A stretch of 64,000 bases of DNA from an archaeon (lineage in GTDB: Archaea > Iainarchaeota > Iainarchaeia > Iainarchaeales > JAAZKV01). Every line of letters begins with the position of its first letter. The stretch's first letter is position 1. The stretch lies in the NCBI GenBank assembly GCA_041659525.1, contig JBAZYC010000001.1, forward strand, positions 653,731-717,730, in the 5' to 3' direction. The position numbers and the translations under genes were made by a program. The notes below the pieces were generated by a model. That model saw nothing but the letters and a program-made list of their open reading frames with translations, ran no database searches and was not told the DNA's origin. This document shows, piece after piece, positions 55,559 to 64,000 of the stretch.

Positions 55559-56321
55559 ATTCGCTTAGTGCTTTTGTTAGTTCTTCTATTGGCATTGAGG
55601 TTGTAATTAGAGGAATTTTTTCGCTTTCAGCGATTTTGATTGCTATTGGGTCAACTGGTTTTTCTGGAGTGAATACTCCGTGTAAGATTATCATACTTGG
55701 TCGCATATCTGTAGAAAATCTACCTACTTTTACTGCAATTAGTGGGCTTCTTCCGTTCTCAACGTGCCTAAAAATAAGTACTCTATTTGGAGTTTTTCCA
55801 TAGAGCATCATGTATTCGTGTACTGGTACTTCTAAAATAACTTTTATTGAATCAATTATAGTGTAACCAAAAACAGTTTCTTCTTTTACTTTGTGAGGCA
55901 GGCAAATAATTGTTCCATTTATTTTTTTAACTATTTCAGTTGCTTTTATTCCTGAAGTGAATTCGTGTGAATCAAATGCGCTTACTTGTTCTTGAGCAAA
56001 ATCTTTTTCAAGTTGTTTAACAGTTTTTCCGCCTTTTGATTTATCAAGTTCTATTAGAGCATTAACTAATCTAGAAATTACCCCTATTCCTGGGTTCTTT
56101 CTTCTTCCGCCCTCGTAATCAGAGATTGTTGAAGAAGATACTTTCAAAAAAGAAGCGAGTTCTGTTTGGTGGACTCCAAATATTTCTCTCCATTTCTTCA
56201 TCGATCCGCCTGGATCGCTTGAGAGAGTCATTTCTCCTGCAATAGTCATTGCTAATTTGTCCATACCAATACTAGGTTCAAAGTAATTAATAATGGTTTC
56301 GTCAGTTGTCCTCAAAGACAA
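55548..56321 (-). CDS. XRE-type HTH transcriptional regulator with a large C-terminal domain (COG1395-like)
   Basis: FGVHQTELASFLKVSSSTISDYEGGRRKNPG helix-turn-helix. Overlaps paralog A by 11 nt. Confidence 0.6.
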   Translation of the reverse strand: MSLRTTDETIINYFEPSIGMDKLAMTIAGEMTLSSDPGGSMKKWREIFGVHQTELASFLKVSSSTISDYEGGRRKNPGIGVISRLVNALIELDKSKGGKTVKQLEKDFAQEQVSAFDSHEFTSGIKATEIVKKINGTIICLPHKVKEETVFGYTIIDSIKVILEVPVHEYMMLYGKTPNRVLIFRHVENGRSPLIAVKVGRFSTDMRPSMIILHGVFTPEKPVDPIAIKIAESEKIPLITTSMPIEELTKALSEFEK

Positions 56322-56389
56322 GAGCTTTTTTCGTCAAGTGAATTGCTCTCTTGATTAGGTTTTTATACTTGGTAAATAGTAAGTTGTTT

Positions 56390-57019
56390 ATGGTTAAGAG
56401 TTTTTTTGCTATAAAGAAAGGTGGCTTGAAAAAGTCAACAATTACTGTTAGAGAGCATGGGCTTATTGGAATGGGTTCTGAAAGAGAGGTTCATGAAGCT
56501 AAAGTAGTTGTTTTGCGAAATAAGCAAGGAAAACTAAAGAGAGGAAAAACATTAAAATTGGCTTTGAAGCGTTTTGATCAAGTTTATGAACATGATCATC
56601 CTTGGAGTAATCCTTTTGTTCAAGTAAGAAATTTTAATTCGCTTAAAGAGTTGAATACTAAGAAAAAACTTGGACTCAACATTATTCCTACTTATAGATT
56701 AATTGAAGCTCCCACTAGAACTCCTGGAATAGTTGCAACAAATCTAAGAATTCTTAATTGGGAATTTTTTAAAAAAGTCCCTGAGAAAGTGAAAAAAGAA
56801 GTGTTAGATAAAATCAAAGAACAAATGGATATTGTTAAAAGTGAAGGTTTTGATATAGCTTTTGATGCTTTTGCTTTAGTTAAAGTTAAAGACGATTTGG
56901 TTCCTTATATTGCTGATTTTAGGTCAGTTCACCCTTCTCGTTCACAAGCAGAGATTGAAAAAAAACTTGCACAAATCGAAGCTCATAAAAATGGAAATCA
57001 ATCTAGAAAAGCTAAATAA
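56390..57019 (+). CDS. Hypothetical protein, possible degenerate kinase-like fold
   Basis: GMGSEREVHEAKVV...LALKRF (Gly-loop/Lys-like) and FDAFALVKVKDDLVPYIADF (catalytic/DFG-like). The match is weak. Confidence 0.3.
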   Translation: MVKSFFAIKKGGLKKSTITVREHGLIGMGSEREVHEAKVVVLRNKQGKLKRGKTLKLALKRFDQVYEHDHPWSNPFVQVRNFNSLKELNTKKKLGLNIIPTYRLIEAPTRTPGIVATNLRILNWEFFKKVPEKVKKEVLDKIKEQMDIVKSEGFDIAFDAFALVKVKDDLVPYIADFRSVHPSRSQAEIEKKLAQIEAHKNGNQSRKAK

Positions 57020-57094
57020 TTTTATTTAAATTTAATAGTTAGAAATTATGGTTAAAAAATCATTTTTAATTAAGAATAAATTTTTTTAAAGTGC

Positions 57095-57136
57095 ATAGTT
57101 ATGGGTAATCTTTTTGGAGATTGGTTTGGAGACATT
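57095..57136 (+). repeat. Direct repeat copy 1 (duplicated 5' end of gene 58875..59171)
   Basis: ATAGTTATGGGTAATCTTTTTGGAGATTGGTTTGGAGACATT. Identical to 58868..58910 except for one T/C change and one extra C. It encodes only MGNLFGDWFGDIK followed by a stop (57101..57142). Confidence 0.8.
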
Positions 57137-57213
57137 AAATAAAAAAACTTGTGAATAGATGTAAAGAAACAATATAAATAGTTAAGTGATTAATTATATT
57201 AGGGGGATTATAA

Positions 57214-57543
57214 ATGCGAACTTTTTTTAGAACAATGGCAGGAAGAGTTGCAGATAGAGTTAGTCTTTTTAGGAATCGTCAGCTTCCTTTTCGTGTCCCT
57301 AATAGTAGAAGGGGAGGAGTGCAGAGAGCTAGAATAAAAAATGGGGTGTTATTTGGAAATCAACCATCTCTTGGGGAAGGACGATTTTATGGAAGAGTTG
57401 TTGGATTATCAAAAGGTCCTGATGGATCACTTTACCCAACAAGGAATGAAGGTCCAAAAACAAAACCTTTTCCAAAAGGAGTACTCATAGTGGATAGTAG
57501 GGGTAGAACTGTAGGGGTTCGTCTTGCTGCGGAAGTAAAATAA
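57214..57543 (+). CDS. Hypothetical basic 109-aa protein (inside the repeat-flanked cassette)
   Basis: Arg/Gly-rich, no motif recognised. GGGGGA upstream of the ATG. Confidence 0.45.
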   Translation: MRTFFRTMAGRVADRVSLFRNRQLPFRVPNSRRGGVQRARIKNGVLFGNQPSLGEGRFYGRVVGLSKGPDGSLYPTRNEGPKTKPFPKGVLIVDSRGRTVGVRLAAEVK

Positions 57544-57644
57544 TCTAATCATCTTGCATTAAACGAACCAAATGGGTTCAATATTTTGCCCCAGAATTTT
57601 ATTGTGGGTAAGTTTTATTAATTCCCTAAGCCCTATTCTATTGT

Positions 57645-58808
57645 ATGGGGATTGCAACAAGAAAGATTATTGAAGCTCGTTTGAAAAAACAAAATAGCTA
57701 CTTAAAATTAAAATCAGATTCAGAGCGCAGAAGAGTTCTAGTCAATCATCTTCGCGCAGAGCAAGAGCGTATTAGTCAATTACATCCTAGTCAATTTGCT
57801 GCTTATAAAATAGTAAAAACTTTAGCAACTTCTCAATCTCCAGGAAAACCAATTAAGACAGCGAGTGTTTTGTATGATAAGCATAATGCAGTAACTGGGC
57901 GAGCAATAGAAAATGAATTTAAAAGAAGAGGAATTAAAACTCAGTCACTTGGTTTTGTTAGAGATGAACTTGATTTGAAAATGAATAGGGCTAGTTCTGA
58001 TGCACTAAGAAAGCATTCTAGAAGTGAAGCAGTTGTTTTTTTAACGAAGGGAAATAAATCCCAGTTTGATAATAATGCGGATATTGTTGTTAATGAAGTT
58101 GAACGCAGAAACGGACAAAAGAAAGGTAGTCGTTTGGCTTTGATTTATGGAATAGATAATATGAACGCAACAAGAATGGGGCTTGCTGCTACTCAAAGAA
58201 AAAATGTTTTAATGAGAAAATTTACTACAAAAACAATGAATGCTGTTAAAGGAGCAAGGCAACTAAGTGTTACTACAAGGAATGGAACAAATCTTTCTTT
58301 TTCTTTAAGTCCAAGAGTTAAATGGCTTGCAGATGATGGAGCTATAACAAAAAAACTTTGGGGTAATTTTGTTGCAGGAGAAGTTTATACTACTCCTTTG
58401 AGAGTGGATGGAACAATTGTTCTTGATATGTTTGTTACAGGAGTTGGTAATGTTGAAAAAACTCCAATACGCGCTAAAGTTAGCGGAGGAAGGATTGTAT
58501 TTGATAGTATTACTTGTGCAAGCGAATCGGTTCGTCAAAAATTTTTAAATATTCTTAGAACTGATAAAAATGCTTCAAGAATTGGAGAACTTGGACTTGG
58601 AACAAATGTTTCTATAAATAAACTAACTGGCGGAATTTTAATTGACGAAAAGTTTCCTGGACTACACGTTGCTTTTGGTGATGGTTATGGAGAATATACT
58701 GGAATTAAAGGAAGGGATAGTTTAGAACACAATGATGCTCTTTTGAGAAATCCAACTATTGTGGTTAATGGTAGAAGAATAATGGTTAATGGAAAAAGTC
58801 TTCTATAA
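57645..58808 (+). CDS. M29-family aminopeptidase (AmpS/PepS-like)
   Basis: GEVYTTPLRVDGTIVLD, IGELGLGTN and DEKFPGLHVAFGDGY match the thermophilic metalloprotease M29 blocks. Confidence 0.65.
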   Translation: MGIATRKIIEARLKKQNSYLKLKSDSERRRVLVNHLRAEQERISQLHPSQFAAYKIVKTLATSQSPGKPIKTASVLYDKHNAVTGRAIENEFKRRGIKTQSLGFVRDELDLKMNRASSDALRKHSRSEAVVFLTKGNKSQFDNNADIVVNEVERRNGQKKGSRLALIYGIDNMNATRMGLAATQRKNVLMRKFTTKTMNAVKGARQLSVTTRNGTNLSFSLSPRVKWLADDGAITKKLWGNFVAGEVYTTPLRVDGTIVLDMFVTGVGNVEKTPIRAKVSGGRIVFDSITCASESVRQKFLNILRTDKNASRIGELGLGTNVSINKLTGGILIDEKFPGLHVAFGDGYGEYTGIKGRDSLEHNDALLRNPTIVVNGRRIMVNGKSLL

Positions 58809-58867
58809 CTTCATTTGTCTACAAATTTTAGTTAGTTCATAAAGTATAAATACTCTTTTTGTTGTAT

Positions 58868-58910
58868 ATAGTTCATGGGTAACCTTTTTGGAGATTGGTT
58901 TGGAGACATT
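58868..58910 (+). repeat. Direct repeat copy 2 (intact 5' end of the membrane-protein gene)
   Basis: ATAGTTCATGGGTAACCTTTTTGGAGATTGGTTTGGAGACATT. Confidence 0.8.
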
Positions 58911-59171
58911 TCTGTAATCCTTTTTGTATTCATTGCTTTTTTGATTTTTTATTATTTCATTGCAAAGAAAGGAAAAACAAGAAACGAAGCTGTGTTAGTT
59001 TCTTCTTTAATAATTTTTTTAACATCAGCTTTCTCAGTAATTGATTCTACTTTGTTAGGAAATACTTTTTCGGGGCCAGTAATTGGATTTTATTTACTTG
59101 GAGTAATAGCAATTATTTCTTTAATTGCTTTTATTGCAGAAATAAATAGACTCTGGGAAAGAAAAAAATAG
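58875..59171 (+). CDS. Small membrane protein (3 TM helices)
   Basis: 98 aa and hydrophobic. Its first 12 codons are duplicated at 57101. Confidence 0.6.
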   Translation: MGNLFGDWFGDISVILFVFIAFLIFYYFIAKKGKTRNEAVLVSSLIIFLTSAFSVIDSTLLGNTFSGPVIGFYLLGVIAIISLIAFIAEINRLWERKK

Positions 59172-59189
59172 TTTTTCTATCTTCCTTAT

Positions 59190-59379
59190 TTAAATTATCA
59201 AATCATTGTCACCTCCGCTTTGTCGAATTTTTTCGTTGGACTCTGCTTTTCTCGACTTAAACCTTTCCCCTTTGGGTCGCTGTTGCTAAAGGTTTAATGT
59301 CTCCAAAAGCAGCGGGGCCGTCCATGAAAAAATTCGTTTTTTGCGGAGGTGGCTCAAATGATTTTTTTAAATAATTTAA
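59190..59379 (+). promoter_or_regulatory. ~190-nt imperfect hairpin that pairs an anti-SD-like CACCUCCGC with the SD and start codon of the downstream uORF
   Basis: Paired arms: TTAAATTAT (59190-98) with ATAATTTAA (59371-79); AAATCATT (59200-07) with AATGATTT (59357-64, which includes the ATG at 59358); CACCTCCGC (59210-18) with GCGGAGGTG (59343-51); CGAATTTTTTC with GAAAAAATTCG; CTGCTTTT with AAAAGCAG; TTAAACCTTT with AAAGGTTTAA. Confidence 0.6.
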
Positions 59380-59501
59380 GTAAACCCTCAAAAGAGGAAA
59401 TATTGTCAGTAAAAAGAATTGCAAGATGCAATCCTAATGATTTGGATTCAAGAGAACTTTGGGTTCTTGAACAATTTTTAGAGGGTGATGAAGATGATTA
59501 A
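59358..59501 (+). CDS. Unannotated 47-aa upstream ORF overlapping the LAGLIDADG gene start
   Basis: MIFLNNLSKPSKEEILSVKRIARCNPNDLDSRELWVLEQFLEGDEDD. A strong GGAGGTG lies 6 nt upstream of the ATG. It overlaps the next ORF by ~14-17 nt in another frame. Confidence 0.45.
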   Translation: MIFLNNLSKPSKEEILSVKRIARCNPNDLDSRELWVLEQFLEGDEDD

Positions 59502-60495
59502 TTCATCGCCGGCAAAGAACTTCCAAAGCGATTATAAAGCTCCAAACTTGGAGTCTAATATGGTTAACATTCTTTTGCCAAACTATTTACCAAAATTAGA
59601 TGAAAAAATAAAAGTGCACAATTTTCACAAGGTGCTTTTAGAGTATCATTTGGAAACTAATCTTACTATGCGAGCTGTATCTAAAATAATTGGTTTGCAT
59701 GAAGTAACTTATAGATCATATCTTAGTGGGAAGAATCGACCAGATTTTAAAATGTTAAAAAAATTAAGTAATGTTTATGGAGTTGATTTGTTACAAGTAG
59801 CATTTGAACAAAATCATGAATTTTTTATGGGTAAAAAAGTAATAAAATTACCAAGAGAATTAACTATTGATTTAGCTTATTATATTGGTTATTTGCAAGG
59901 TGATGGTTATTTAGAATCTGATAAAAAAAGTTATGGTTTTGCTGATGAATACCTTAGTCAGATAGAGCAAATGAATGTTTTAACAAAAAATATTTTTAAT
60001 GCTGAAGGACATATTTATGCAGTTGTTTCAAAAATTGCTACAAAACCTTGTTATAATTTAGTGATAAATTCTTTTGTTATTAATTCATTTATTCATGAAT
60101 TTTTTGGGATTATTAGGGGCAAAAAAATTCAATTAAGAATTCCAAAAATAATGTATTCTAATAAACAAATATTAGCATCTTATATTTCAGGCCTTTATGA
60201 TGCCGATGGAACAATCCCAAAACAACCTCAAAAAGCAAAACAACTTTTTGTAGATGTGACTATGAAAGATAAAATTTTTATGGAAGAAATAAAAGAAGTG
60301 TTGAACTCGTTTGGAATTTCTTCTTTAAAATTATATGAAAGACGAAGTCATTCAGGGGTTGGTAGCTGGGATTCACCAAGTTGGGAAATAAGAATTAGAA
60401 GACATGGTGAGATATTGAACTTCTTAAGAGAAATAGGTTTTCATCATCCTGATAAATCAAGAAGAGCAAAAGAGGTGATTTCTATGTTAACATAA
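59488..60495 (+). CDS. Free-standing double-motif LAGLIDADG protein with an N-terminal XRE-type HTH
   Basis: LAYYIGYLQGDGYL and ASYISGLYDADGTI are the two LAGLIDADG motifs. N-terminal MRAVSKIIGLHEVTYRSYLSGKNRP is an HTH. Confidence 0.8.
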   Translation: MKMINSSPAKNFQSDYKAPNLESNMVNILLPNYLPKLDEKIKVHNFHKVLLEYHLETNLTMRAVSKIIGLHEVTYRSYLSGKNRPDFKMLKKLSNVYGVDLLQVAFEQNHEFFMGKKVIKLPRELTIDLAYYIGYLQGDGYLESDKKSYGFADEYLSQIEQMNVLTKNIFNAEGHIYAVVSKIATKPCYNLVINSFVINSFIHEFFGIIRGKKIQLRIPKIMYSNKQILASYISGLYDADGTIPKQPQKAKQLFVDVTMKDKIFMEEIKEVLNSFGISSLKLYERRSHSGVGSWDSPSWEIRIRRHGEILNFLREIGFHHPDKSRRAKEVISMLT

Positions 60496-60497
60496 AA

Positions 60498-60617
60498 CGA
60501 GCCGGTCGGGAATTGGACCCGAGTCTACGCCTAACTTCAATCAATCGGGTTTGTTTTGTAAAACATTTCCAAAAAGATTCTAGGAGTGCGCGATACTATC
60601 CACTATACTACCGGCCC
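60498..60617 (-). tRNA. tRNA-Arg (anticodon CCU) with a 48-nt intron at the canonical 37/38 position
   Basis: Acceptor GGGCCGG/CCGGCTC, D arm GTAT-AGTGGATA-GTAT, anticodon loop CUCCUA|A, T arm TCGGG-TCCAATT-CCCGA. Exons are 60617..60581 and 60532..60498. Bulge-helix-bulge: central helix CUCC/GAAG, 3-nt bulges UA|G and UU|A, inner helix AAUC/GAUU. There is an A31-G39 mismatch. Confidence 0.75.
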
Positions 60618-60677
60618 GTATAAGTCTATTTGTCGGAGAACCTTTAAATTAGTTATTAATCAAACTTTTTCTTTATT

Positions 60678-61244
60678 TTACAAAAGCAATCTTATTGCAG
60701 TAGCAGTAAACAAAGGGACCCAAAGGTTGTCATCAAGTGGGAGTATTTCTATAAGGGTAGCAACTATTCCGCCAATTATTGCAATGTGTAATGGAAAGAA
60801 TAAATTGATACAAATAATTGAGACAATTAAACAAGCAATGCTTCCTTCCCAAGTTTTTTTCTTATATAGTTTGTGTTTCCCAAAGGTTATTCCAATTAGA
60901 GCCGCTGCAGAATCTGCAAATACTTGTACGCTTAGTGCTGCAAGAATTATTTGAGGGCTGTCTTTGAATAAAATTAGTAACAAAATTGCTGATACGAAAA
61001 AATATACTGCTGCTTTTCCAGGGAAATGTTTTTCATTTTCTCTTTCCACATTTTCAACCATTTTTCTAATAAAAGGAAATTCGTGTCCTCTAATTATTGC
61101 GAACGATAAAATTGTTCCTGCAATTAAGCACAATCCAATTATTAGTGCGCTCATTTGGGTTCCTGCGAATTGGATTAGCAATATAAAGAATAATCCGAAG
61201 AGTACGTGAATAGCTTTTCTTACATATTCTCTTGTGTGACTCAT
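60678..61244 (-). CDS. CTP-dependent polyprenol (dolichol) kinase / CdsA-superfamily membrane protein
   Basis: Polytopic. FADSAAALIGITFGKHKLYKKKTWEGSIA matches the D..AA..G...GK....K(S/T)WEGS motif of the cytidylyltransferase/dolichol kinase family. Confidence 0.5.
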   Translation of the reverse strand: MSHTREYVRKAIHVLFGLFFILLIQFAGTQMSALIIGLCLIAGTILSFAIIRGHEFPFIRKMVENVERENEKHFPGKAAVYFFVSAILLLILFKDSPQIILAALSVQVFADSAAALIGITFGKHKLYKKKTWEGSIACLIVSIICINLFFPLHIAIIGGIVATLIEILPLDDNLWVPLFTATAIRLLL

Positions 61245-61329
61245 TTTTTCCCTTCTGTTTTATATCCTTAATACACTAACTTCTATTTAACCACTTCTGA
61301 ATAGATTAACATTGCCAAAAATCGAGGAT

Positions 61330-61986
61330 TTACTTCTTTTTTACGAGTATTAAGTAGTGGTGTTTTTCGTAGGGTTCTATGTCAATTGTTTGTATTACTT
61401 CGAATTCTTTTTCAAGTAATTTGGTTTCATCAGAGAGTACTTTTTGGGGGGTTAGTGATTGTGAAATGCTTTTTGTTTTTAGTGCGAGTGCCCCTAGCCC
61501 TCCTTTTTTTAAGAATTGTGCGTTTCGCAGGAAAATATCCGCTTGGTTTCTTTGGGAGATATCTTGAAACATTGCATCTACTTTTTGGGTAAAAAATTCT
61601 TTGTAATTATCAGTGCTTTGTGCGTCACTTAGTATTGGAAATAAATTTGTTCTTAGTTCTGCAAGTTTAGCAAGTTTTTGCATTGCTATTTCGCTTACAT
61701 CTAAGCAAAAAACTGCTCCTTTCTCTCCAACAATATCTGAAACGTGACTTACTGTTGTTCCTTCTGCGCTTCCTAAATAAAGTACGCTTGCTCCGTCAAA
61801 GAAAATACTTTTTTTAATTCCATTAACTATTCCCGCTCCATATTTGGATCGGTGTGGGTCCCATTCGCGGTACTCAATTCCTTCTTCATTAATTAGTCTT
61901 TCTCCATAAACTCTTTTAGTGGGTAAAAGGTTTTTTGTGTAAATGGATTTATTTTTTTTATAAATTCCATCAAAAATTTGTTGCAT
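61330..61986 (-). CDS. flpA: Fibrillarin (rRNA/tRNA 2'-O-methyltransferase)
   Basis: YREWDPHRSKYGAGIVNG and VLYLGSAEGTTVSHVSDIVG. ATG at 61986. Confidence 0.95.
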   Translation of the reverse strand: MQQIFDGIYKKNKSIYTKNLLPTKRVYGERLINEEGIEYREWDPHRSKYGAGIVNGIKKSIFFDGASVLYLGSAEGTTVSHVSDIVGEKGAVFCLDVSEIAMQKLAKLAELRTNLFPILSDAQSTDNYKEFFTQKVDAMFQDISQRNQADIFLRNAQFLKKGGLGALALKTKSISQSLTPQKVLSDETKLLEKEFEVIQTIDIEPYEKHHYLILVKKK

Positions 61987-62061
61987 AAGTAAAATCCTCA
62001 AAATAGTTTTTTTTTTACTTAATTTATTTAAATTAATTTTATTCCTAAATTAATTTATTTT

Positions 62062-63408
62062 TTAGAATCTTTTTTTGAATCCGTGACTGGGCTTGCTTGC
62101 ACCCGAGCTATGCGAGGGCTTGTTGAATCTTCCTTTTCCAAAGCTTCTTCCTCTGGTTCTGTCTTGCCCGAATGAAGTTTCACTGTCTCTTGTCCGGTAT
62201 CCTCTGTCTGAGTAACCTTCTTCTCTTTCTGGTCCATAATTTGGTTTACCAAATCTTGGTTTGTCTCTATTCACTGCTTGATTTGTTCCGTGAATCGCTC
62301 TTTTTGTTTCGTAACCTGTTTTTTCTCCGCTATATTCTGAATTAGTATTTCCGTAAGATGGCCTGCCACCATAACTTGGCCTGCTGTAAGATGGTTTACC
62401 ATAACTTGACCTGTCAGCACCTGATCCACCATAAGATGGTCTTGGTGAATTGTATCTTGGTCTGTCAGTACTTGATCCGCCGTAACTAGAATTTCCTTCT
62501 GAACTTCCTCTGTATGGAGCTTTTTGTATCCAATCCCTTGGTGGGCCTCGTGTCTTGTAAGCTTTTCCCATCCCTCTTTTTTGGAAGTATGCTTTTCTTT
62601 CTTCAGGAGAAAATGTTTTGTGTTCTGCAATCGGTTTTTCTTCAGTTTCTTCTGGTGTTGCTCTCCATTCTTTTTTCTTATTTTCTTTATCAAATTGTAA
62701 TTGTCTTCTTTCATTGTTGATTGCGTCGTACTCTAATTCTTTTTGTTCTTGCTTTGCAGTAATTGGTTCTGCGATTAGTGAATCAATTCTTTTTTGCATT
62801 TCTTTTTGAACTTCCGAGGAAGTGTTTTCTCCGCCAAAGTAATCTTGTTTAAGTGCAATAGTTAATTTTCCTGCTATCATTCTTGCTGCTCTTCCTCTTT
62901 TTACTCTTGGAAGTTTTTGCATTAATGGGTGATTGAATAAGTGTCCGTGTTTTGGGCTCTTTGCATTTTTTCTAATGTGTGCAAAAAGAGCTTTTTCTGC
63001 TCCGAGTAATTGTATTGTTGATGCAGGCATCATACATAATCTTTTTTTCGAGCCAGCGCTTGCAAGTAACTTTGCTCCAATTATTGGAGTAGCTAGTACT
63101 GAAAAATTTGGGAACTCTTCATTCATTTCTTTTTCAATAAACAAAGTTAGTTTTTGTTTTTCTTCTTCAATAGTTTTATTGTTTTTTTCAAGTTCTAAGT
63201 ATGATTCTTCTGCTTCTCCTGTGGGTTGACGCATTTTCCATTCAGTAGCATTTTCTTTTAGTAAATTGTTAACAGAATTAAGGTCTTCGAGCAAATTAAC
63301 TGCTTTAATTATGTGAATTTCTTTTCCGGCAAATTTCTCGTTTATTTGGTCTTTTGCCTTTTTTAGCATTTGTTTTCGTAAGAATTCTCTTTGGTCCATA
63401 AGATTCAC
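62062..63408 (-). CDS. nop5: Nop5 (Nop56/58) box C/D RNP core protein with a ~230-aa S/Y/G/R-rich C-terminal tail
   Basis: Nop domain LGAEKALFAHIRKNAKSPKHGHLFNHPLMQ...RGRAARMIAGKLTIALKQDYF. The tail has repeated RPSYGG / SSYG / RG units. Confidence 0.9.
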   Translation of the reverse strand: MNLMDQREFLRKQMLKKAKDQINEKFAGKEIHIIKAVNLLEDLNSVNNLLKENATEWKMRQPTGEAEESYLELEKNNKTIEEEKQKLTLFIEKEMNEEFPNFSVLATPIIGAKLLASAGSKKRLCMMPASTIQLLGAEKALFAHIRKNAKSPKHGHLFNHPLMQKLPRVKRGRAARMIAGKLTIALKQDYFGGENTSSEVQKEMQKRIDSLIAEPITAKQEQKELEYDAINNERRQLQFDKENKKKEWRATPEETEEKPIAEHKTFSPEERKAYFQKRGMGKAYKTRGPPRDWIQKAPYRGSSEGNSSYGGSSTDRPRYNSPRPSYGGSGADRSSYGKPSYSRPSYGGRPSYGNTNSEYSGEKTGYETKRAIHGTNQAVNRDKPRFGKPNYGPEREEGYSDRGYRTRDSETSFGQDRTRGRSFGKGRFNKPSHSSGASKPSHGFKKRF

Positions 63409-63471
63409 TTGTTGTTCTTAGATATTTTTTATTTGTTAATCCTTATAAATAACACTATTTACAAGTATTAT

Positions 63472-64000
63472 ATGACAAGTGTAGTAGCTGTTGTTTTGGC
63501 TCATAATGAAGAAAGGGCGCTACCTAGGACTCTAAGGATTCTTTCGGGTTTTAAGCGAAAAGGGATTATAAGTAACATTATTGTGGTTAATGATGGAAGT
63601 GAAGATAGAACTGCGCTAGTAGCCCAAAAAGCTGGGGCCATTGTTGTTTCTCATGAAAAAAATATGGGAAAAAGAGAGGGGTTCATTAGTGGGGCATTTA
63701 AAGCTAGAGAACTTGGCGCGGATGCTCTAATTTCTCTTGATGCTGATATTCACCAATTTTCAGAAAAAAGTGTAAGAACTCTAATTGAACCCGTAATTAG
63801 TGGCGGAAAATTAATGAGTGTTGGAAGACAATATGAGAAACATACTACAATAGGAGTTGGGCCAATTAAAGCTATTAGAAATCTTTTTTCAAAAAATACC
63901 TCTAGAAAAGTTTCAAGTAGATTAGGTTTTTTAGAAACTTATTATGGGGGAGTGTCTAATTCTTTTTCTACTTTTCCTAGGGCAATAAAACTAACTGCTC
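63472..64000 (+). CDS. Glycosyltransferase family 2 (partial, runs off the window end)
   Basis: VAVVLAHNEE..., VVNDGSEDRT and SLDADI (DxD) are GT-A/GT2 hallmarks. No stop codon before 64000. Confidence 0.7.
   Translation, partial: MTSVVAVVLAHNEERALPRTLRILSGFKRKGIISNIIVVNDGSEDRTALVAQKAGAIVVSHEKNMGKREGFISGAFKARELGADALISLDADIHQFSEKSVRTLIEPVISGGKLMSVGRQYEKHTTIGVGPIKAIRNLFSKNTSRKVSSRLGFLETYYGGVSNSFSTFPRAIKLTA

Follow-up and report, generated by a model that had tools for sequence, protein, structure and literature searches.

A conserved hairpin RNA pairs the Shine–Dalgarno sequence ahead of mobile LAGLIDADG cassettes in Iainarchaeota and probably silences their translation

Why should an archaeal LAGLIDADG gene be preceded by a long hairpin in which the ribosome-binding site (RBS) of a small open reading frame (ORF) is paired with its own complement? 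The question arises in a 64,000-nucleotide (nt) stretch of an Iainarchaeota genome (contig JBAZYC010000001.1, positions 653,731 to 717,730 of the forward strand), referred to here as the window, where positions 59200–59364 form a hairpin of about 165 nt. Inside it, an anti-Shine–Dalgarno strand, CACCUCCGC, is base-paired with the Shine–Dalgarno (SD) sequence GCGGAGGUG of a small ORF (sORF) of 47 amino acids (aa), which overlaps the start of a LAGLIDADG gene. We consider it likely that this hairpin is an RNA leader at the 5′ end of a mobile cassette for a LAGLIDADG homing endonuclease and acts in cis as a translational silencer or insulator.

RNAfold assigned the segment 59180–59380 a free energy of −72.2 kcal/mol, against −37.5 ± 3.7 kcal/mol for 200 dinucleotide-preserving shuffles, none of which was equally stable (z = −9.3). 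The fold is real and far beyond chance; the opposite strand is nearly as stable on folding. In the partition function, the probability of being unpaired is close to zero for the SD bases. The sequence CACCTCCGC at 59210–59218 meets its exact complement, GCGGAGGTG, at 59343–59351, and the sORF ATG stands at 59358, 6 nt past the SD in this copy. An original prediction, made for this locus before the present analysis, had placed the anti-SD, the SD, the ATG, the sORF and its overlap with the nuclease frame at positions that all agree with the sequence. Its long hairpin was likewise confirmed as a fold, but not at the proposed length of about 190 nt, since the conserved part measures about 150–165 nt (59207–59357) and the outermost pairing occurs only in this copy. 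That pairing is made by the outer 5′ arm AAAUCAUU (59200–59207, plus strand), where AAATCATT is complementary to 59356–59363 and pairs across the sORF AUG. Two other copies in the same genome, c2 (96% identical) and c3 (95% identical), do not keep it, and copy c4 re-forms it with other bases (AAAAUCC/GGAUUUU). The earlier statement that both SD and AUG are sequestered therefore survives for the SD, whose pairing covaries, and not as a conserved feature for the AUG.

The stability of the fold bears directly on the earlier suggestion of an RNA thermometer, which would melt at raised temperature and permit translation. SD and AUG are indeed paired, as in ROSE and fourU elements, but a structure of 46 pairs with GC-rich helices and −72 kcal/mol is too stable for physiological melting, and we attach next to no credence to this explanation.

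The element is built of a basal helix and an elaborate interior. Helix 1 joins the anti-SD strand GUCACCUCCGC (59208–59218, plus strand) to the SD strand GCGGAGGUGGC (59343–59353, plus strand), whose SD core is GGAGGUG. The inner hairpin (59225–59336, plus strand), delimited by consensus structure and pair counts, contains the helices U6/A6; GGAC/GUCC, which has a bulge of 7 nt; CUGCUUUU/AAAAGCAG, which covaries over 8 bp; and UUAAAC/GUUUAA, which is invariant and has one U bulged out. It also has a conserved 3 × 3–4 internal loop (CUC/CUCC) and an apical junction of variable form; a second conserved CCUCC is found in the internal loop of the 3′ arm. A nearly invariant T6 run occupies 59228–59233 on the plus strand of the 5′ arm, the U:A pairs of its helix being unchanged in 41–43 of 44 homologues. 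Further T-runs lie at 59337–59342 and 59362–59368, and the T6/T7 runs are conserved. The 3′ arm carries an invariant TTTAAT preceded by AAAGG (hexamer at 59293–59298, plus strand), a candidate internal TATA box. The hexamer occurs at the same position in 44 of 45 homologues and is completed by the invariant bulged U; AAAGG-TTTAAT-G is the most conserved stretch of the whole element. A bulge-helix-bulge splicing motif and a K-turn were considered and rejected by inspection, as the loop geometry does not fit either.

The hairpin is not confined to this locus. The 1.06-Mb genome (G000) holds four copies, all on the plus strand of contig 1; two of the other three are 95–96% identical to the present one and the third is 81% identical. 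In all four, the hairpin is followed by an sORF of the same family and then by a double-motif LAGLIDADG gene. When the four loci were aligned, similarity began abruptly 2–3 nt 5′ of the anti-SD, spanned the hairpin and sORF, and stopped about 40–60 nt past the sORF stop, while the upstream flanks are unrelated, as are the nuclease bodies (336, 377, 462 and 315 aa). The common part is a 5′ module of about 340 nt ahead of differing nuclease genes, and it is 95–98% identical between cassettes whose nuclease genes are unrelated.

By BLASTN, 31 of 61 relatives proved to contain the module. The covariance model R1 (158 positions, 46 pairs, made from 11 close copies), extended the element to 81 of 196 genomes and 34 of 73 genera of one order of Iainarchaeota/Diapherotrites (DPANN), with no match in 19 other genomes of the phylum. 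Per-genome R1 counts (up to about 13) are inflated by reverse-strand matches of the near-palindrome, and for the present genome six matches correspond to four elements. Of the 46 loci that were read, 44 have the element in a fixed orientation and directly connected to an SD (GGAGG), a start codon and an ORF; in the other two, the SD is a variant or the contig ends. An Rfam 15 scan of 56000–64000 at E ≤ 1 gave no match, a scan that also missed an intron-bearing tRNA in the same region. Literature on Iainarchaeota/Diapherotrites combined with LAGLIDADG or homing endonucleases yielded nothing relevant and no paper on the RNA family. The hairpin is a member of an uncatalogued conserved RNA family of about 150 nt.

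The original prediction had pointed to related genomes as the place to look for covariation, and there it is abundant. Pair counts were taken from forward matches only, kept by a stricter E-value. Across the resulting 44 forward-strand homologues placed on the model, standard pairs fill 94.4% of cells, a value somewhat inflated because this alignment was fitted to the model. Changes on both sides are found at 36 of the 46 pairs (143 cells). None of 500 column shuffles attained any of five measures, and when the 3′ partner was shifted by 1–3 columns, pairing dropped to 45–60% and the score for covariation fell from 0.243 to about 0.05. Six compensatory pairs emerged from 11 close copies aligned by MAFFT/RNAalifold independently of the model; plain MAFFT with RNAalifold on 24 diverse copies was unusable, as indels misaligned the stems, and the covariance model was used instead. 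The exchange can also be read in the raw sequences of homologous loci L022 and L029, where the 8-bp helix is replaced as a whole by GCGCGGCG/CGCCGCGC.

The covariation is also strand-specific. The model scores 181 bits on the forward strand versus 57 on the reverse, and U-G pairs, which would be C-A mismatches on the opposite strand, are common (23 of 44 at one pair). Given a roughly threefold higher forward score and the tolerance of U-G pairs, selection appears to act on the strand that carries the SD and the ORF, and the comparative data indicate that the structure is selected as an RNA of the plus strand. This asymmetry speaks against a role of the hairpin as DNA, that is, as a miniature inverted-repeat transposable element (MITE), an IS200/IS605-type end or a cruciform in transposition or recombination of the cassette. 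The element is multi-copy, both strands fold, and the near-identity of the 5′ module in front of unrelated nucleases suggests recombination or gene conversion. Yet only the mRNA strand tolerates U-G pairs, no transposase, matching 3′-end hairpin or solo copy was seen among the loci read, and the element keeps in phase with an SD and start codon. We judge a DNA-level function very improbable. As for the multi-copy MITE that the original prediction had allowed for, the genome does hold four copies, but the fixed orientation of all four, and of 44 of the 46 loci read, to an SD, a start codon and an ORF does not suit an autonomous MITE.

Comparison of the basal helix indicates that selection acts on sequestration of the SD. 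Double changes occur at each of the 10 helix-1 pairs across the 44 homologues. Where the SD reads GGAGGCG (L031, L034 and L063), it is matched by CGCCUCC in the 5′ arm, and in L021, L023 and L024 AAAGGAGGUGA is paired with CCUUCUUUUU-type arms. Locus L027 has lost the whole inner hairpin and kept a 12-bp basal anti-SD:SD stem. The spacer from SD to start codon is 7–8 nt in most of 45 homologues. Masking of this kind would, we infer, repress translation.

The same observations limit the case for a hairpin whose main function is transcription termination or insulation, or which is a stable small RNA in its own right, with SD pairing as a secondary property. Such a role could draw on the conserved T6/T7 runs, one of which directly follows the hairpin, on GAATTTTTTC, which is read on both strands, and on the fact that the cassette displaces the downstream region of the host gene. 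Archaeal termination, however, requires only oligo-T and not a 46-bp covarying structure, and translation control is indicated both by the way in which the anti-SD changes together with SD variants and by the constant 7–8 nt between SD and AUG; we hold it unlikely that termination is the main task of the element. The T6 run at 59228–59233 is a possible archaeal oligo-T terminator of incoming transcription.

The ORF whose SD is masked (59358–59501, plus strand; MIFLNNLSKPSKEEILSVKRIARCNPNDLDSRELWVLEQFLEGDEDD, 47 aa plus TAA) is conserved at the protein level (alignments A6 and A8). Its homologues vary in DNA and keep the pattern (F/L)P.P(S/T).EEI..VK.(I/L)A..NPE.LD.RELWIL..F, with P10, E14 and W35 invariant. 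An exhaustive profile search of 1.84 billion representatives returned 80 clusters (50% identity), essentially all of 35–96 aa, and none of these 80 clusters held a nuclease-fused homologue; a lone 813-aa match consists of four short stretches and looks spurious. The public names attached to homologues are 'Candidatus Diapherotrites archaeon' and 'Candidatus ainarchaeum'. Sequence searches of Pfam and PDB found no relative. AlphaFold2 predicts a two-helix hairpin (12–24 and 31–41; pLDDT 77), and a Foldseek search with this model gave nothing significant. The sORF is a genuine stand-alone small-protein family, with about 80 clusters and no fused member, and the earlier proposal that it could be the remnant of a frameshift is abandoned on these grounds. 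A programmed +1 frameshift joining sORF to nuclease was rejected as well, given the absence of fused homologues and stop/start overlaps that fit coupling better.

The sORF of the present locus represents class A of the first ORFs. Other branches of the RNA family have different first ORFs, always short, and the RNA leader is the constant element. Class B encodes about 34 aa (MSFSQKFSE.RGNPFS.GFSL); class C encodes about 30 aa, and the next genes specify a 67-aa protein and a 104-aa DUF6573-like protein in place of a nuclease. In the relatives' loci L026, L028, L030, L032 and L035, the RNA leader heads small non-nuclease operons that consist of an sORF of about 30 aa (MNYLDKKQVFGRGFTCQELL...), the 67-aa protein (MKLKEITVNVSQKV..YGSKGFGLSATAEL) and the 104-aa DUF6573-like protein. 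Separately, an 8-bp mini-hairpin (UUCAAGAG...UUCUUGAA) was observed at 59463–59487, within the sORF codons for DSRELWVLE. It shows synonymous compensatory changes (TCA/CTT to TCG/CTC) in L022, L027 and L029 and is not family-wide.

The end of the sORF overlaps several possible starts of the LAGLIDADG frame (59485–59501, plus strand): GTG at 59485, ATG at 59488 and ATG at 59494, with the sORF stop at 59499–59501. The LAGLIDADG frame is +1 relative to the sORF, and ATG 59494 sits 5 nt ahead of the stop. ATGA or GTGA stop-start overlaps recur at the same junction in many families (L018, L027, L031, L051, L054, L060, L064, L068 and L070). The recurrent geometry makes translational coupling of sORF and nuclease, as originally predicted, plausible. 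The long form of the nuclease begins at 59485–59494. The short, leaderless form (59560–60495, plus strand; 311 aa, starting MVNILLPNY) was assigned from Pfam matches and motif spacing. The protein is a double-motif LAGLIDADG enzyme (LAYYIGYLQGDGYL and ISGLYDADGTI) with Pfam matches to LAGLIDADG_3 (1.6e-16) and HTH_3 (2.7e-9), and 21 of 40 downstream ORFs at homologous loci match LAGLIDADG_3.

What looks like a conserved nuclease N-terminus, SSPAKNFQSDYK, coincides with a DNA motif at 59508–59538 on the plus strand, GCCGGCA-N3-(A/C)AC-TYCC-AAA-N2-G-(A/T)-TTATAAA. It resembles a transcription factor B recognition element (BRE) with a TATA box, headed by a palindromic GCCGGC upstream element. Third codon positions within it (CCG, GCA, CAA) are invariant and the encoded residues change radically, which indicates a constraint at the DNA level. 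From TTATAAA (59532) to ATG 59560 the distance is 28 nt, and in 14 of 15 same-family cassettes an ATG stands exactly 28 nt past the TATA, with 21 variable nt between them. Some other families have no ATG at +28, the coupled start being the only one available. In three relatives (L013, L019 and L023), insertions of about 55 nt lie between the sORF stop and the CCGGCA motif; they add one or two small hairpins, e.g., GCAAAACCTCAGAGGTTTTGC, and preserve the nuclease frame.

Genome-wide, TATA-like hexamers peak 27–30 nt ahead of ATG (148 of 641 crude genes, about 23%); hexamers of the TTTAAT type are also found 27–30 nt before ATG, and TTTAATG occurs in native promoters. GGAGG-type SD motifs stand at −13 to −9 in about 80 genes (about 12%). 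From the TATA peak and the SD counts, we conclude that leaderless and SD-led mRNAs coexist in this DPANN genome. The nuclease itself is probably made in two ways, as a long form coupled to the masked sORF and as a short form whose mRNA starts from a separate leaderless promoter of the gene.

The promoter motif is also present at G000:C1:523928(+), 818535(−), 488118(−) and 404803(−). In non-coding DNA, it stands 28–29 nt ahead of the ATG of an N6/N4 DNA methyltransferase gene and of a 544-aa ORF without a Pfam hit, and it lies upstream of an RPA-like single-stranded DNA (ssDNA)-binding gene and at a fourth locus. The fourth locus has, about 300 nt downstream, an 86-aa ORF with no Pfam hit that by eye resembles PC4-type ssDNA-binding proteins. 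The genes that share the motif may constitute a small regulon for DNA metabolism, with the palindrome GCCGGC as operator.

Hairpin, sORF and nuclease gene together occupy 1.32 kb (59172–60496, plus strand), and comparison with relative G019 (L075) reveals how they came to lie there. In G019, the stop of the orthologous membrane-protein gene lies only 8 nt from the 3′ end of a tRNA-Arg(CCU), whereas here the stop of this 98-aa membrane-protein gene (59169–59171) forms the left flank of the unit and tRNA-Arg(CCU) (60497–60618, minus strand) its right flank, outside the cassette. Genes for a dolichol-kinase-like protein and fibrillarin then follow in both genomes. Because G019 has the empty site, the 1.32-kb unit is an inserted cassette. 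The flanking tRNA contains a 48-nt intron, was recovered in ARAGORN intron mode and was missed by the Rfam and default ARAGORN scans; its G019 counterpart is intron-less.

A sister copy sits between gatA and gatB, adjoining a duplicated 5′ stub of gatB. Upstream of this sister cassette, we observed a 20-codon stub (L009 3930–4010; G000:C1 ~726430–726510) that resembles the GatB N-terminus (MIGLEIHAYLGTESKLF), and the intact gatB begins downstream, overlapping the end of the cassette's nuclease gene. On the left side of the cassette studied here, the gene for the 98-aa membrane protein has its 5′ end duplicated as a 42-nt direct repeat (57095–57136 and 58869–58911; the two differ by one substitution and a 1-nt indel). 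Between the repeats lie 1.7 kb that contain an Arg/Gly-rich ORF of 109 aa and a gene of the M29-peptidase-like type; this segment is a second inserted cassette directly upstream of the studied one.

We hypothesize that the hairpin prevents translation of a selfish and potentially toxic nuclease from transcripts of host origin. The proposal builds on the structure and its covariation, their strand, the masking of the SD, the insertion of the cassette and the promoter-like geometry described above. In transcripts that include the 5′ arm, CACCUCCGC and its neighbours would pair with the SD, and here also with the AUG, and block ribosome loading; as the nuclease ORF starts within the end of the sORF, coupled translation of the nuclease would be silenced too. 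The four-locus alignment contains no conserved sequence 5′ of the hairpin, and as the module lacks an upstream promoter, host read-through transcripts should be the main RNAs that contain the 5′ arm. The T-runs at 59228–59233, 59337–59342 and 59362–59368 might in addition end incoming transcription. The BRE/TATA-type promoter of the nuclease, 28 nt before the internal ATG, would yield a leaderless mRNA. Coupling plausibly operates in the cassette, and the masking may be relieved in some way.

Relief may come from an internal promoter at the invariant TTTAAT of the 3′ arm. The genome's own spacing predicts a transcription start site near 59321 and an mRNA with a 5′ untranslated region of about 37 nt that would be free of the anti-SD arm. 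RNA truncated at about 59321 folds weakly (−16.5 kcal/mol), with the SD partly open. This leads to a two-transcript switch like that of phage T4, a refinement of the silencer reading in which AAAGG-TTTAAT is a BRE/TATA inside the hairpin, the cassette's own transcripts from about 59321 are translatable, and only read-through is masked, much of it being terminated at the T6 run. Several observations point that way: the near-universal TTTAAT with its bulged U, the genomic TATA peak 27–30 nt before leaderless ATGs and the TTTAATG of native promoters, a module without conserved sequence 5′ of the hairpin, the open fold of the truncated RNA, and the T4 precedent. Against them, the complementary 5′ arm is equally invariant, which allows for structural or binding-site conservation; AT-rich hexamers are common at 32% GC; and L027 lacks the TTTAAT segment, yet its sORF and nuclease gene are intact. 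We take such a switch as a serious possibility, if one that we would not count on.

A broader form of this idea is a portable archaeal 'promoter-inside-the-hairpin' device, in which the module of about 340 nt recombines between unrelated LAGLIDADG genes and joins a DNA-metabolism regulon. The invariant 3′-arm TATA box would make the cassette's own mRNA translatable, and read-through would first meet the oligo-T terminator and then the translational block imposed by the anti-SD arm. The link to the regulon is drawn from the occurrence of the nuclease promoter motif ahead of RPA and DNA methyltransferase genes. We offer this generalization tentatively and with some doubt.

Three points weigh against the silencer reading. 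The fitting of the pair-count alignment to the model, mentioned above, flatters the pairing to some degree. The UUAAAC/GUUUAA helix and the internal loops keep an invariant sequence that exceeds what plain masking needs, and this invariance may point to an additional function, for example as a promoter, in processing or in the binding of a protein. Finally, if most of the nuclease comes from the leaderless promoter of its gene, it is the sORF and not the nuclease that the hairpin controls.

The second of these points could be met by a sensor leader, that is, a protein-binding autoregulatory site or a riboswitch-like element, in which a factor on the invariant loops and UUAAAC helix shifts the anti-SD:SD pairing. 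Candidate factors would be the sORF peptide, the nuclease, a ribosomal protein or a small ligand. The idea accords with invariant helix and loop positions amid covarying stems and with the second conserved CCUCC in the 3′-arm internal loop, and T4 I-TevI is known to autoregulate through an operator (PMC2988022). It is harder to reconcile with a −72 kcal/mol hairpin that a ligand would struggle to open. Moreover, no alternative, mutually exclusive fold that frees the SD was found, there is no Rfam family, and the differing sORF classes A, B and C behind a constant RNA count against the sORF peptide as ligand. We regard a sensor as rather improbable, and translational silencing of host-derived transcripts continues to be our preferred explanation.

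Together, these results would add a well-supported structured RNA family, absent from Rfam, to the DPANN archaea, for which, to our knowledge, almost nothing is known about gene regulation. They would also mean that archaeal selfish nuclease cassettes use the answer of phage T4, the masking of the RBS on host-derived transcripts. A modular 5′ unit before unrelated nucleases would be an unusual shared regulatory cassette kept by recombination. For annotation, the RNA family and the promoter motif could serve as markers of mobile LAGLIDADG cassettes and of leaderless promoters in Iainarchaeota, and they suggest corrected gene starts, e.g., ATG 59560.

Among known systems, the nuclease promoter is comparable with archaeal leaderless promoters, in which BRE/TATA elements lie about 25–28 nt before the start; here, TTATAAA is 28 nt before ATG 59560. 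It departs from typical examples by an extra conserved GCCGGCA...CACTTCC element and by its position within a longer frame that overlaps the sORF. HEARO and IscB omega-RNAs are, like the present family, conserved structured RNAs directly 5′ of a nuclease ORF in multi-copy mobile units. Unlike them, the RNA described here holds the ORF's own SD together with an anti-SD, a cis-regulatory logic; LAGLIDADG enzymes are protein-guided, and no guide-like variable segment was seen. The unit of about 1.3 kb, present or absent at an intergenic or gene-end site, recalls free-standing homing endonuclease cassettes such as T4 seg/mob and fungal mitochondrial mobile ORFs, from which it differs by a portable 5′ module (hairpin, sORF and promoter motif) common to unrelated nuclease bodies.

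The closest parallel is phage T4, where stable hairpins sequester the RBS of I-TevI, I-TevII, I-TevIII and segB, as is also the case for mobE of phage Aeh1 (PMC2988022). In T4, the inhibitory hairpin is present only on early and middle read-through transcripts, and an internal late promoter gives a translatable mRNA (PMC2988022). In both systems, the SD just 5′ of the AUG is paired within a stable hairpin of a selfish endonuclease unit, and the hairpin forms on transcripts that enter from host genes, as we propose for the archaeal case. Both also have promoters in or near the element, the internal one being inferred here, and layered control would keep nuclease levels low. The differences are equally clear. 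The host is an archaeon, the enzyme is a LAGLIDADG nuclease and not of the GIY-YIG or HNH type, and the masked ORF is a separate 47-aa gene whose stop is overlapped by the nuclease frame. In contrast to the idiosyncratic short hairpins of T4, the archaeal leader is about 150 nt long, has conserved loops and a three-way tip, and belongs to a family present in 34 genera.

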